Notes: generated from the letters alone by a model not told the origin. DNA of 64,000 bases from Candidatus Heimdallarchaeota archaeon (GCA_018238545.1 JABCTC010000001.1:64001-128000), one strand, 5' to 3'; counted from the first letter of the stretch, positions 34,985-48,605 are shown. Program-made: numbers and translations.

Positions 34985-36025
34985 TCAAGCTCTAGATGAT
35001 GGAAAAAACAATTTATTTTTCACACTTAAAGCTACCAAATGACCAATCATAGATATACCTACACCACATAAAATATCTATAATAAAATGATGATTGAAAT
35101 AGATTGCTCCTAGGAATATGGCCATACTGTAGGGAATAGTTAAATATATTGATTTTTTCCATTTTTGATGAATACACAAGGTTGCTGATAGTGCGTAAAC
35201 AGCATGAACACTAGGGAATGCTGCAAAAGAGTTCTGTTCAAATGTTCCATAATACCACGAAAAAATATTCACTCCCAAAATTTCATCAATTCTTCCTAAA
35301 CCAGCTGTTATGTTTTGACTATAATCTATTGCAATATCGGGTTGAACAAAACCATATTGACTGATATACCAAGGAGCTGCAGCGGGAAAGCTCACAAAGA
35401 GAATAAAGGATAGTAATGTTACAGTATAGAATGTAATTACGAGAAATTTGAAGTTTTTCTCGTCTCCTTTAAAATACAAGTATAATCCAAAAACCAAGGG
35501 AACAAAGGCATGTAATAGATAAATTCCACCTAAAATAAGATCAATAGGAATAGAATATAAAGTTGAATGAACCCATTGATTAGGGGTCATTCCCCCAAAA
35601 ATCCATCCAAATAATTTCATCTCTAAGAGATAGATTTCTTCTGTAAGAACACGTGGATACAGCAAATTTTCTTTTATTTTTGACATTAACTCATAAGTAA
35701 TCCAAAGTATGAAAAAAGGCAAACTATTAATTAATAATGTAATAGGGGTTTTGGAGGTTTTAAATTTCATCAAATATAGAATAGCAGAAATAACAGCAAA
35801 AAAGAAAAAAACAACCCCCGATAATAATGAAATGAATACAAATCCTTCTCCATTTAATATAATTAAAATAGTATCAAAAAAAAGATAAGCTATAGCAAAA
35901 TAAATATGATACTGTCCGCTTTTAAAATCTCGCAATATTTTCTCTGATAACAATGTTTGTGTAAGTGTTATTTCTTCCTCTATTGGTTTAGTTTCTCTAC
36001 GTATTTTTGATGCCAATTCTATCAC
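34985..36025 (-). CDS. PAP2 / AUR1-like (inositol-phosphorylceramide-synthase-like) membrane phosphotransferase, copy 1
   Basis: FPAAAPWY, AGLGRID, FAAFPSVH, IYFNHHFIIDILCG. Confidence 0.8.
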   Translation of the reverse strand: MIELASKIRRETKPIEEEITLTQTLLSEKILRDFKSGQYHIYFAIAYLFFDTILIILNGEGFVFISLLSGVVFFFFAVISAILYLMKFKTSKTPITLLINSLPFFILWITYELMSKIKENLLYPRVLTEEIYLLEMKLFGWIFGGMTPNQWVHSTLYSIPIDLILGGIYLLHAFVPLVFGLYLYFKGDEKNFKFLVITFYTVTLLSFILFVSFPAAAPWYISQYGFVQPDIAIDYSQNITAGLGRIDEILGVNIFSWYYGTFEQNSFAAFPSVHAVYALSATLCIHQKWKKSIYLTIPYSMAIFLGAIYFNHHFIIDILCGVGISMIGHLVALSVKNKLFFPSSRA

Positions 36026-36084
36026 CTTTTAATATTACTTTACTTATAAAAAAATAAAAAAAATAAAAAATAATCAGTACTTCT

Positions 36085-36186
36085 CTAATATTCTTCTTCT
36101 TTTACTGATCTTTTGGTTATTCGTTTAACGCTTGTTTTTAAAGATTCTATAACTTGCTTTGTTTTTGCTTTTAATCTGTCTAACAT
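36085..36186 (-). CDS. unannotated 33-aa basic small protein
   Basis: GGAGG RBS, TAATG overlap with the radical SAM stop; MLDRLKAKTKQVIESLK shared with 43661..43747. Confidence 0.55.
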   Translation of the reverse strand: MLDRLKAKTKQVIESLKTSVKRITKRSVKEEEY

Positions 36187-46101: not shown

Positions 46102-47406
46102 ATGACAAAGGTATCAAAAGAAGAAGTTCAATATTTAGCTTTTGAGGGTGGGGGCGGAAAAGGTGTAGCATATATTGGTGCTCTAGAAGTCATGAAGGAG
46201 CTAGGTATTATATCTTATTATAATAAAGAAAAAGAAAGTAAAATTTATAGAAGAATCAATACTGACAAAATCAAAGGTGTTGCAGGAACATCTGTAGGTT
46301 CAGTTGTAGCTTTGCTTGTAGCTTGTGGATATTCACCTGAAGAAATGCAAGAAATGCTGATGAAGAAAATAGGTATAAATATTCTTGACACAGTAGAATT
46401 CGGGAAAATGCCTACTATTTATACAGAGGAGTATCAAGACATAGTTATTCAAGATCCAAGATTTAAAGATATTGAGAAATTCATGAAAGCTTCATGGTTA
46501 GAATATATTAAATCAGAAGATAAGAGTATAAGTAATTTATTGGAAATACCTGTTAATCGTTTACAAAGTGGAGGTCTGAAATTTTTTTCATTGATCTTAA
46601 AAGGTTTCTTTAGTTATGAATCGAAAAAAACTTACTCTAAAGATTCGTCAATTAAAAATAATCTTATCAACATTAAGGAATTAGTTCATTCAGAAACAAT
46701 GAGTCCAGCATTAAAAAAAGTTTTAGCTGATCCTATTCATTCATTTAATAGTTTAAAATACGAATATGGGTTATTCTTAGGTAAGACAGCAAGAGACATG
46801 TTTGATTCATGGATTGAACAAAAGTCTGGAATACAAAACTGTACATTTAAAATGTTTCAAAAGGAGTTTAATATAGATTTAGTTATACCTGCTGTTAGCG
46901 TAAATTCAAAAGAGCTATTCTATTTCAGAAATAATAGAAAGTGGAAAGATTTATGTGTAGCAGATGCAGTAAGAATGTCAATAAACATACCTTTCTTGTT
47001 TAAACCTGTGTTAATGAAGAAAACAAAAAAGGGAATAAGCTCTGTTACAGATGAAATTCATTTAGCTAATTTTATGATTGATGGAGGTGCAATAAACAAT
47101 CTCCCTATACATGCATTTGATAAAAAAAGTTCTTCAAAGTTAAATCCTTCAGTCGTTGGATTTTCTCTAGTACCGTATAAAAAAGCAAAGACAACAGAAA
47201 TTAATTCCATAAATCAGTATATCGGGGATATAAGTTATATAATCCTAAACAATGCAACAAATCTTCAGATTCTACAAGAAGAAGATAGAGATCAGATTGT
47301 AGAATTAGATACTAAGGACGTGAGTATTTTTGATTTCTCATTTGAAGAGATACCAGAAGAAGTAAAACGGGAGTCTAGATCTAGAACATTAGAATATTTT
47401 TCGTGA
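46102..47406 (+). CDS. patatin-like phospholipase
   Basis: EGGGGKG, GTSVG, AVRMSINIP, IDGG. Confidence 0.9.
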   Translation: MTKVSKEEVQYLAFEGGGGKGVAYIGALEVMKELGIISYYNKEKESKIYRRINTDKIKGVAGTSVGSVVALLVACGYSPEEMQEMLMKKIGINILDTVEFGKMPTIYTEEYQDIVIQDPRFKDIEKFMKASWLEYIKSEDKSISNLLEIPVNRLQSGGLKFFSLILKGFFSYESKKTYSKDSSIKNNLINIKELVHSETMSPALKKVLADPIHSFNSLKYEYGLFLGKTARDMFDSWIEQKSGIQNCTFKMFQKEFNIDLVIPAVSVNSKELFYFRNNRKWKDLCVADAVRMSINIPFLFKPVLMKKTKKGISSVTDEIHLANFMIDGGAINNLPIHAFDKKSSSKLNPSVVGFSLVPYKKAKTTEINSINQYIGDISYIILNNATNLQILQEEDRDQIVELDTKDVSIFDFSFEEIPEEVKRESRSRTLEYFS

Positions 47407-47690
47407 TTGCATACCTTTCTGAAATGATTAAAAAATTAATAAGATAATTCATTGCGTATTTTTCCTTTATATTTCTAAGGAAAAGGAATCTGCTGAAGAG
47501 AAAATACAGCGAGATAATATCCTGGGAAAGATGAATTAAGTTTGAAGATAGTTATTGAGAAAAAATAGACAAAAAGGTAATTCCTACCCTTGTTTATCTG
47601 ATGAAATCTTCTTAGTAAACCAATATAAGAATCAAGTGTCAGATAAAATTGTTTTGAGTAAACAGGCTATAATTTAATGATTACTTATAC

Positions 47691-48605
47691 TTAATTCCAA
47701 TATTCATCATCTGTATAGTCAGATATTACTCCTATTGATTCTGGACCAAGGTGTGATAGAACTGAACCTCCACTTTGAACTAATTCGATTTCCATTTCTG
47801 GATATCTCTTTTTGATAATATCCGCCATATTGTTTGCATAATCGAGTCTGCTTCCATAGACTATTGCTATATTCTTTGGAACTTTAGTAAAATCATCAGT
47901 ACTCAGCTTTAGTGATTCTTCTAGTCCTTTTTGTACATCAGTTGTTGAGCCAGCTGTCACAACGTTTCCTTCTTCGTTCATGGTTACAATAGGTTTCTTT
48001 CTTAACACTGCTCCCATAAGGAATTTGGAAGTTCCAAGTCTACCTCCCTTCCACAAGTATCTTAAGGTTGGAAGGAGAATGATTGTTTTAATCTTCAAGG
48101 CTTGTTGAGTTAATATTTCAGCTATCTCTTCAGCACTGTGTTTCCCTTTTTTGATCAATTTGAGAGCCATTCTTATTAAGAAAACCTCTGGAGCAGATGC
48201 AGATAAGGAACTTACAACGTGAATATTTACATCCACAAATTGTTTCATTACTTGTTTTGCAGCTAGACGAGCACTATTGATTGATCCACTTAAACCTGCA
48301 CTTACTGTGACAACAACAATGTCCTTTGTTCCCTCTTTGATATGCTCCATATAGGCATCTGTGTAGTCTTTTGGATTTGGTTGAGAGGTTTTTGGAACAA
48401 AAGAATAAAGATTTAATTTTGGTATGTGTAAAAATGCTTTTTCGTCTTCAAACAATTTATAGTACGCATCTCTATCAAAATTCTCATCTTCTCTTAGCTC
48501 TTCTTCATGAACATACATGTACATGCAAGCTATCTTAACATTGTTTTCTTTAGCAAAATCCCAAGGTAAATCAGAACCACTGTCAGTAACTAAACCAATT
48601 GTCAT
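47691..48605 (-). CDS. DegV family fatty-acid-binding protein
   Basis: VTDSGSDL, PKTSQP, SAGLSGS, LWKGGR, SHLGP. Confidence 0.9.
   Translation of the reverse strand: MTIGLVTDSGSDLPWDFAKENNVKIACMYMYVHEEELREDENFDRDAYYKLFEDEKAFLHIPKLNLYSFVPKTSQPNPKDYTDAYMEHIKEGTKDIVVVTVSAGLSGSINSARLAAKQVMKQFVDVNIHVVSSLSASAPEVFLIRMALKLIKKGKHSAEEIAEILTQQALKIKTIILLPTLRYLWKGGRLGTSKFLMGAVLRKKPIVTMNEEGNVVTAGSTTDVQKGLEESLKLSTDDFTKVPKNIAIVYGSRLDYANNMADIIKKRYPEMEIELVQSGGSVLSHLGPESIGVISDYTDDEYWN

Follow-up and report, generated by a model that had tools for sequence, protein, structure and literature searches.

The described systems closest to the locus reported here include radical SAM enzymes that act on lipid tails. 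Mss of Thermoanaerobacter ethanolicus (WP_129545148.1) and Thermotoga maritima (Tmari_0825) couples two fatty-acid tails (Sahonero-Canavesi et al. 2022, PMC13159169). Its activity is restricted to anaerobic conditions; it is widespread in anaerobes, and it is expressed more strongly as the growth phase advances (Table 1, PMC13159169). Homologues of Mss have been found in Asgard and DPANN genomes, next to homologues of Ger (PMC13159169), and the archaeal ones were described as being of low homology (2022 preprint). The criteria used for Mss homology were an E-value of 1e-50 or better, at least 30% identity and a length of at least 400 amino acids (aa) (PMC13159169 and 2023 preprint). Here we describe a locus at positions 34985-48605 of a 64,000-nucleotide (nt) stretch of DNA from a Candidatus Heimdallarchaeota archaeon (GCA_018238545.1 JABCTC010000001.1:64001-128000); this whole stretch is called the window below. 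The locus carries two radical SAM (rSAM) genes, each of which is followed by a small open reading frame (ORF) for a basic peptide and by a gene for a PAP2_3 phosphotransferase resembling AUR1, an inositol phosphorylceramide (IPC) synthase. A TetR-family repressor and a patatin-like acyl hydrolase are encoded on the opposite strand.

From the observed gene identities, operators, conservation, bacterial origin and lipid-gene neighbourhoods, the locus is tentatively explained as a TetR-switched operon for acyl-lipid remodelling, in which a bacterial Mss-like rSAM works together with a native AUR1-like transferase, an accessory peptide and a patatin. The substrates, products, inducer and role of the peptide are proposed as follows. 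A TetR switched by a ligand would act on TGTTTGAAACA palindromes overlapping the TATA boxes of both rSAM operons. After derepression, the patatin would free acyl chains from glycerolipids. The rSAM would modify a fatty-acyl lipid at its hydrocarbon tail, and the likeliest reaction would be a tail-to-tail C-C coupling of the Mss type. PAP2_3 might take a phospho-head group (e.g. inositol phosphate) from a donor phospholipid and attach it to a hydroxyl of a lipid, so as to re-head the product. The small basic peptide, made in step with the rSAM, would most likely be a membrane-surface or accessory subunit, not a substrate. In this genome, the interval from the first cassette to TetR would have gained the second cassette and a PadR-MMPL export unit.

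Gene identities were assigned by profile searches with Pfam and NCBIfam. The features are as follows.

34985-36025, minus strand: PAP2_3-a, 346 aa, AUR1/IPC-synthase-like lipid phosphotransferase, last in cassette a (PF14378, 68 bits against a cut-off of 27)
36085-36186, minus strand: small ORF a, 33 aa, Lys/Arg-rich with amphipathic-helix-like hydrophobic spacing, ending in EEY; its start overlaps the rSAM-a stop (TAATG)
36186-37643, minus strand: rSAM-a, 485 aa, Radical_SAM and SPASM domains, Mss-like candidate
37661-37713, no strand assigned: putative promoter/operator a, three (T)GTTTGAAAC(A) palindromes around a TTTAAATA TATA-like box
38022-41429, minus strand: MMPL/RND transporter, 1135 aa (PF03176, 293 bits), between the two cassettes
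41439-42302, minus strand: fusion of a PadR-like helix-turn-helix (HTH) with a weak methyltransferase-like part, 287 aa (PadR 23.8 bits, below the cut-off; Methyltransf_11 24.7 bits)
42541-43593, minus strand: PAP2_3-b, 350 aa, second AUR1-like phosphotransferase
43661-43747, minus strand: small ORF b, 28 aa, residues 1-17 equal to those of copy a, C-terminus different and without EEY
43763-45196, minus strand: rSAM-b, 477 aa, Radical_SAM and SPASM domains
45218-45278, no strand assigned: putative promoter/operator b, three GTTTGAAA(C) palindromes and two TTTAAA(TA) boxes, in a divergent region shared with TetR
45460-46068, plus strand: TetR-family repressor, 202 aa (PF00440, 35 bits), divergent from rSAM-b
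46102-47406, plus strand: patatin-like acyl hydrolase, 434 aa (PF01734, 85 bits), 33 nt after TetR and co-directional with it
47691-48605, minus strand: DegV/FakB-type fatty-acid-binding protein, 304 aa (TIGR00762, 198 bits against 99.7)

The order of transcription on the minus strand is rSAM-b, 28-aa ORF, PAP2_3-b, PadR/methyltransferase fusion, MMPL, rSAM-a, 33-aa ORF and PAP2_3-a. Of the ten larger ORFs in this span, nine gave clear family matches; the tenth (45273-45575, minus strand, 100 aa) gave none, overlaps both the operator region and the start of TetR, and is unlikely to be a gene. The two rSAMs are 77% identical to each other and the two PAP2_3 proteins 65%. The GC content is flat across the region and the same as in the rest of the window. 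Because the nearest relatives are contigs named Candidatus Heimdallarchaeota or Heimdallarchaeaceae, the host is an Asgard archaeon. An original prediction, made from the window, had named such a host, and in this it was borne out; all of the genes it had listed, including the two rSAM-peptide-PAP2_3 cassettes, were also recovered by the profile searches. The PadR/methyltransferase fusion was absent from its list.

The conservation of the locus was surveyed in 300 Asgard genomes; the complete set for the Heimdall family is 30 genomes, and the genus is represented by the window genome and 21 other sampled genomes. Close orthologues of the rSAM were found only in the window genome (two copies), in G183 and G045 of the same genus (two of the 21 other genomes; 85% identity), and in G212 and G236, which belong to one distant Asgard family (73-74% and 53% identity, respectively). 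Three of the 30 family genomes carry the rSAM module. In G183 and G045 the recurring module consists of PAP2_3, peptide and rSAM, facing TetR and then patatin; beyond these five genes, the two loci contain none of the window's genes. The PAP2_3 orthologues behind the rSAM are 86-88% identical, and the patatin orthologue in the same position is 80-81% identical. The TetR orthologues, divergent from the rSAM in G183, G045 and G212, are 58-62% identical. In G183 the patatin is followed by a glycerophosphodiester phosphodiesterase (GDPD). The G212 locus consists only of the divergent TetR, the rSAM and then a 225-aa Lys/Glu-rich repeat protein.

The original prediction had taken the 14 kb as a single lipid island with MMPL and DegV among its members. 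Since only rSAM-peptide-PAP2_3 and TetR-patatin recur in G183 and G045, the 14 kb is not a conserved unit: it is composed of a conserved module of about 5 kb, a second cassette, a genome-specific exporter unit and a housekeeping neighbour. No close orthologue of the MMPL protein was found (at most 29% identity in the 30 family genomes and at most 40% in the 300 Asgard genomes). Orthologues of DegV (57-89% identity) are present in practically all 30 family genomes, with two to eight paralogues per genome, and the one in G183 is on another contig than the module. DegV is a core or housekeeping neighbour belonging to host fatty-acid metabolism, outside the conserved module. The proposed co-localisation is conserved for the five-gene module but not for MMPL and DegV.

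The rSAM proteins show general features of Mss: the CX3CX2C motif (C119, C123 and C126) is invariant, their lengths of 477-485 aa exceed 400, and the family occurs in anaerobes across many bacterial phyla. C330, C349 and C390 are also invariant, and C250 is conserved in about 90% of the sequences. The CX2CX5CX3C block is absent from the rSAM, and the full seven-cysteine SPASM motif, which provides for two auxiliary clusters, was not found. Because only three to four further conserved cysteines are present beyond CX3CX2C, the auxiliary domain seems to be twitch-like with a single auxiliary cluster. In addition, the family shares a helical N-terminal domain of about 100 aa, which has five helices and no beta strands in the predicted model (pLDDT, i.e. 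predicted local distance difference test, of 89 for rSAM-a). On the basis of distribution and genomic context, the rSAMs of the window probably belong to the Mss family. Tes, another enzyme with which the original prediction had compared them, does not fit: rSAM-a and rSAM-b scored 26.8 and 25.9 bits with NF045702 against a cut-off of 450 and are outside the Tes family. The profile match to PDB 7TOL covers the rSAM core only (positions 114-226, E 8e-8), and 7TOL was not among the top structural matches.

The rSAM family is vast. In two homologue searches (E limits of 1e-10 and 1e-50) all 8000 candidates scored passed the limit, so that the family has at least 8000 members; 713 representative clusters were found at an E-value of 1e-30 or better. 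Its labels in the protein atlas are automatic only, e.g. "anaerobic sulfatase-maturating enzyme". The Heimdall rSAMs are about 60% identical to those of Clostridia and Spirochaetes, and hits were also found in many metagenome-assembled genomes from anaerobic habitats. A member from Clostridium is 60-65% identical to members from unrelated orders; judged from these sequences, the family appears to be unusually slow-evolving. No member from Thermoanaerobacter, Thermotoga or Sarcina was among the matches listed in three homologue searches and one cluster look-up. In a tree made by FastTree, a quick method whose result is to be treated with care, the 16 Asgard-type rSAMs form one clade (support 95), which is sister to 10 spirochaete sequences (support 90) within a family dominated by Bacillota. 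Since the Asgard copies form one clade sister to spirochaetes, the tree seems to indicate that the rSAM reached Asgard archaea by one bacterial transfer. The bacterial-type character stated in the original prediction is in agreement with this origin of the rSAMs. The two rSAM genes also share putative operators, as it had noted.

TetR is located directly upstream of the rSAM on the same strand in 40 of 63 bacterial loci. In the spirochaete sister group, a TetR-rSAM-patatin arrangement was found in L035 (5328-8736), a patatin-Omp85 protein in L006 (1391-7455) and L054, an AMP-binding acyl-activating enzyme in six loci, and an Mbeg1-like hydrolase in four Sphaerochaeta-type loci. DegV lies within 6 kb of the rSAM in five Bacillota loci. 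These repeated acyl-lipid gene neighbours in bacteria support the association of the rSAM family with lipids. A CmpB-like membrane protein is also among the spirochaete TetR-rSAM neighbours. It should be mentioned that two rSAM paralogues lie 4.5 kb apart in L029 (3313-10650), L032 and L033.

Most of the other bacterial neighbours besides TetR are housekeeping genes, e.g. IscS, ThiI and ABC transporters. This suits an unlikely explanation, in which the rSAM acts on a non-lipid substrate, that is, a small molecule or cofactor such as a tetrapyrrole, as NirJ and AhbD do, or a metabolite sensed by TetR; the adjacency of PAP2_3 and patatin would then result from operon shuffling. The best named NCBIfam matches of the rSAMs, NirJ2 (98 bits) and AhbD (77-80 bits), point in the same direction, though far below the cut-offs. 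However, these matches to heme enzymes are five-fold under the cut-offs and cover the core only, and the rSAM family has its own 100-aa N-terminal domain. Repeated and independent links exist in bacteria, to patatin, acyl-activating, lipase-like and DegV genes, and in archaea, to patatin and GDPD. Furthermore, rSAM, peptide and membrane lipid transferase are tightly coupled by the TAATG overlap and a 60-nt spacer.

The small ORFs look like real genes. Four versions of the peptide (two in the window, one each in G183 and G045) keep the reading frame, a length of 28-33 aa and a basic amphipathic pattern, and three of the four have EEY at the C-terminus. The peptides of G183 and G045 are 32 aa long, directly follow the rSAM and show conservative changes. 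The 225-aa protein of G212 (L096:8291-8968, minus strand) is made of helical repeats of about 40 residues and has a faint match to DUF6991. Its start, MFDKLEIAKKKA, is like the MFDKF/MLDRL start of the peptide, and this Lys/Glu-rich protein is possibly related or analogous to the peptide, though larger. Prediction of a complex between rSAM and peptide gave a score of 0.01, which was counted neither for nor against.

The coupling of a 28-33-aa ORF, kept in three genomes, to an rSAM with a SPASM-type domain raises the idea that the rSAM is a maturase of a ribosomally synthesized and post-translationally modified peptide (RiPP) or of a peptide cofactor, with the small ORF as precursor. A Glu/Tyr cross-link or a change of the C-terminal Tyr would then be made at EEY, as by PqqE or MftC. 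The EEY end of three of the four peptides is consistent with this, as is the fact that the closest solved structures are the peptide maturases SkfB, PqqE and SuiB. Nevertheless, we consider this explanation very improbable. No small ORF was found behind the rSAM in 60 bacterial orthologues (50-61% identity), and the peptide is confined to the Heimdall genus; in G212 its place is taken by the repeat protein, and EEY is missing from copy b. RiPP recognition elements are winged HTH folds with a beta-sheet, whereas the N-terminal domain of the rSAM model is all-helical. The conserved cysteines suffice for one auxiliary cluster only, and the conservation of the rSAM across the family is far above that usual for RiPP maturases. 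Because the peptide is absent from bacteria, G212 has a long repeat protein and copy b has no EEY, a role beside the rSAM, as its accessory or membrane-surface partner, is likelier for the peptide than that of a RiPP precursor, as far as the sequences can tell. The conservation of the family, the twitch-like cluster, the lack of a bacterial small ORF and the lipid neighbours together favour a conserved lipid-tail substrate and disfavour a peptide one, as the proposed acyl-lipid remodelling would have it.

The two cassettes are 76% identical outside a 61-nt tract (36136-36196 and 43697-43757) that is identical between them and covers the small ORF's first 17 codons together with the ribosome-binding site. 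In the otherwise closer orthologues of G183 and G045 only 44-46 of the 61 bases match. This indicates that gene conversion took place in this genome; extreme selection, acting on the peptide or an RNA element, was considered as the cause of the identity and was rejected on the same grounds. The cassettes are not a fresh duplication, since rSAM-a shares 95% identity with P0001 (and 85% with G183), and rSAM-b 93% with P0006, which comes from another assembly. TetR-patatin is faced by an a-type cassette in G183 and by the b-type cassette in the window, where cassette b, PadR-MMPL and cassette a follow in succession on one strand. Most simply, an insertion or recombination event at the operator region that they share would have brought in the second cassette and PadR-MMPL.

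Each rSAM is preceded by a TTTAAATA box with three copies of the palindromic TGTTTGAAACA around it. The two rSAM promoter stretches, of about 50 nt each, contain six of the window's 13 GTTTGAAA sites. Two exact copies of the palindrome are present at the equivalent place in G183, between rSAM and TetR; no such site was found in the more distant G212. The TetR-type operators of the original prediction are therefore real as sequence, and both features of a TetR repressor system, a TetR_N HTH (PF00440, 35 bits) and inverted repeats in the rSAM promoters, are present at this level. Because three palindromes bracket TTTAAATA at both promoters and exact sites recur in G183, one TetR most likely represses both cassettes, presumably by promoter blocking. 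It probably also controls its own TetR-patatin operon. Co-transfer of the archaeal TetR with the rSAM was considered and rejected: its similarity to the bacterial partner TetR is generic HTH similarity only. In addition, a tandem direct repeat, GAACAAGCTT GAACAAGCTT, was seen at 45406-45425, which is 35-55 nt before TetR begins. Its sequence differs from that of the GTTTGAAAC operators, and it may serve as a promoter element or as another site of regulation.

The AUR1-like identity of PAP2_3 given in the original prediction was confirmed. Besides the PF14378 match, a profile of 15 PAP2_3 members matched the yeast AUR1 structures 9vj3/9ivc with an E-value of 2e-28 over residues 68-335, i.e. nearly the full length. 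The catalytic P271-S272-x-H274 (PSxH) and H312-H313-x3-D317 (HHxxxD) motifs are invariant in the 15 sequences. The scores with NF052609, the equivalog of phosphoinositol dihydroceramide synthase, were 128.5 and 127.6 bits, below the cut-off of 480; PAP2_3 is therefore a branch separate from the bacterial equivalog. Homologues of PAP2_3 were found in 18 of the 300 Asgard genomes, all in four families (f1-f4) of one Heimdall order, and within the genus only in the three rSAM-bearing genomes. Because the homologues are confined to the Heimdall order and have no conserved neighbours in other genera, the transferase appears to be native to the Heimdall lineage and to have been recruited into the operon. 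No paper that connects AUR1-like enzymes with Asgard archaea turned up in the literature library searched. In the patatin, the motifs of the oxyanion loop (GGGGKG), of the GxSxG serine (GTSVG) and of the DG[GA] aspartate (DGG) are intact. The DegV protein has a clear domain match, and its score with the FakB1 equivalog was 106 bits against 350.

The window genome (G000) is 92% complete. It contains genes for three PlsY, five DegV and two patatins, two adjacent inositol-phosphate synthase genes, and DUF2229 PlsA/Ger-like ORFs of 1033 and 1244 aa; two Dak2-domain ORFs (226-246 aa) were found and no clear FakA. With PlsY, DegV, PlsA/Ger-like reductases and inositol-phosphate synthases, the host has further genes for fatty-acyl lipids, in support of the original prediction. 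The two inositol-phosphate synthase genes make an inositol-phosphate head group possible. They would also suit a different, improbable explanation, in which the rSAM couples or bridges the phytanyl tails of archaeal isoprenoid ether lipids in place of Tes, and PAP2_3 swaps head groups of the archaetidylinositol type. No Tes over the NF045702 cut-off was found in this genome, the best match being 54 bits on another contig, and action on isoprenoid lipids was raised as a possibility for archaeal Mss homologues (2022 preprint). On the other hand, a gene carried by three of 30 family genomes is not the general route of the family to membrane-spanning lipids. The identity of about 60% to bacterial enzymes argues for an unchanged class of substrate, and ester lipids are what its partners patatin and GDPD act on, as in the acyl-lipid remodelling proposed here.

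DNA contigs carrying the locus come from metagenomes of marine sediments and cold seeps. For the 3' part of rSAM-a only, exactly matching contigs (36198-36426 and 36508-36718) were found in two small libraries labelled as metatranscriptomes, from different studies. This is a weak hint that rSAM-a is transcribed, and carry-over of DNA is possible. Neither the missing cover in other parts nor the contig end that is shared at 36198, the edge of the 61-nt repeat, carries evidential weight.

Several points weigh against the proposed operon of acyl-lipid remodelling. The term "Mss-like" is based on distribution and context. A Foldseek search against the PDB gave only generic SPASM/twitch neighbours (anSME, SuiB and SkfB; template-modelling scores of at most 0.5) with no lipid-specific signal, and it does not settle lipid versus peptide substrate. 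In G212, TetR and rSAM occur without PAP2_3 or patatin; the linkage of rSAM and PAP2_3 is limited to three genomes of one genus, and the PAP2_3 homologues of other genera have neither lipid genes nor conserved genes as neighbours. Of these, the limited linkage and the uninformative structure search also count for the non-lipid substrate described above. The archaeal and the bacterial partner TetRs are not orthologous. No PlsC-type acyltransferase (PF01553) was found in the 92%-complete genome. To our knowledge, fatty-acyl membrane lipids have not been demonstrated in these archaea.

Further genes lie at and around the module. The PadR-like gene is 9 nt upstream of the MMPL gene and probably encodes a dedicated regulator of the latter. 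The architecture of this protein is unusual, with a PadR-like winged-helix N-terminus and a weak SAM-methyltransferase-like C-terminus; it may sense a ligand via a degenerate methyltransferase fold. Just upstream of cassette a, at 32501-34571 on the plus strand, are genes for a serine hydrolase of the beta-lactamase family (313 aa) and for an alpha/beta hydrolase of 335 aa. They could be esterases or lipases; in G183 they are not beside the module. A third radical SAM/SPASM protein (19826-20926, minus strand; 366 aa), 15 kb upstream, has no N-terminal extension and resembles rSAMs of about 375 aa from many Asgard families (30-36% identity).

The origin of bacterial-type eukaryotic membranes from an archaeal host is an open question, to which Asgard genomes with genes for fatty acids and ester lipids are central. 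In this respect, the locus is compact, with four to five genes under a switch of their own, and offers a testable case of bacterial or eukaryote-style lipid chemistry. It poses three questions: whether the Asgard rSAM couples acyl tails, what the donor and acceptor of the AUR1-like enzyme are, and which ligand opens TetR. Few uncharacterised cassettes of Clostridia and Spirochaetes are as conserved as the TetR-rSAM pair, and Mss-type enzymes are candidate sources of the branched glycerol dialkyl glycerol tetraether (brGDGT) lipids used as palaeoclimate proxies. A more far-reaching idea, which we regard as quite unlikely, is that the operon makes a new class of archaeal lipid: a fatty-acyl, possibly ether-reduced, bolaform or membrane-spanning lipid with tails joined by the rSAM and an inositol-phospho head from the AUR1-like enzyme, under a lipid-sensing TetR and with the peptide as an obligatory subunit of the Mss type. 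If this were true, a close relative of eukaryotes would unite bacterial tail chemistry with a eukaryote-like head-group transferase.

The pathway had been called undescribed in the original prediction. This holds in part. The idea of Asgard Mss homologues is already published (PMC13159169), and the module is confined to a minority of the genomes of one Heimdall genus. An operon architecture with a native AUR1-like enzyme, a conserved peptide and palindromic operators was not found described, and it is this architecture that is new here.

When compared with Mss, the window genes share a radical SAM protein of more than 400 aa with CX3CX2C, a distribution over anaerobes including Firmicutes and Spirochaetes, and published homologues in Asgard genomes; their expression seems to be regulated, not constitutive, and PlsA/Ger-like genes are present in the host. 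In contrast, descriptions of the published Mss genes mention neither TetR operators nor an operon shared with a patatin, a small peptide or an AUR1-like transferase, and the window gene is duplicated and in an archaeon. Tes/GDGT-MAS (MJ0619, 7TOL) is also a radical SAM enzyme for which the joining of two lipid tails has been proposed, and it too has extra Fe-S domains. GDGT-MAS has two auxiliary clusters and a rubredoxin-like iron site, whereas the window rSAM seems to have one auxiliary cluster and lies far below the Tes cut-off, as given above.

AUR1 and the IPC synthases (yeast Aur1-Kei1; Bacteroides, NF052609) have in common with PAP2_3 the fold, the full-length match and the PSxH and HHxxxD motifs, and the host has inositol-phosphate synthesis genes. 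The differences are that the window PAP2_3 is below the cut-off of the bacterial equivalog and that, among the 300 Asgard genomes, it was found only in one Heimdall order. The FakA/FakB-PlsY system and the patatin and GDPD of Gram-positives have counterparts in these archaea in DegV, three PlsY, patatin and, in G183, GDPD; however, no full-length FakA was recognised, no PF01553 PlsC was found, and DegV is under the FakB1 cut-off. The TetR-rSAM cassettes of Clostridia and Spirochaetes contain the same rSAM family (50-61% identity) beside a TetR-family gene. In these bacterial cassettes TetR is co-directional and of another TetR lineage, whereas in the archaeal version it is divergent, and the peptide, PAP2_3 and patatin have been gained.

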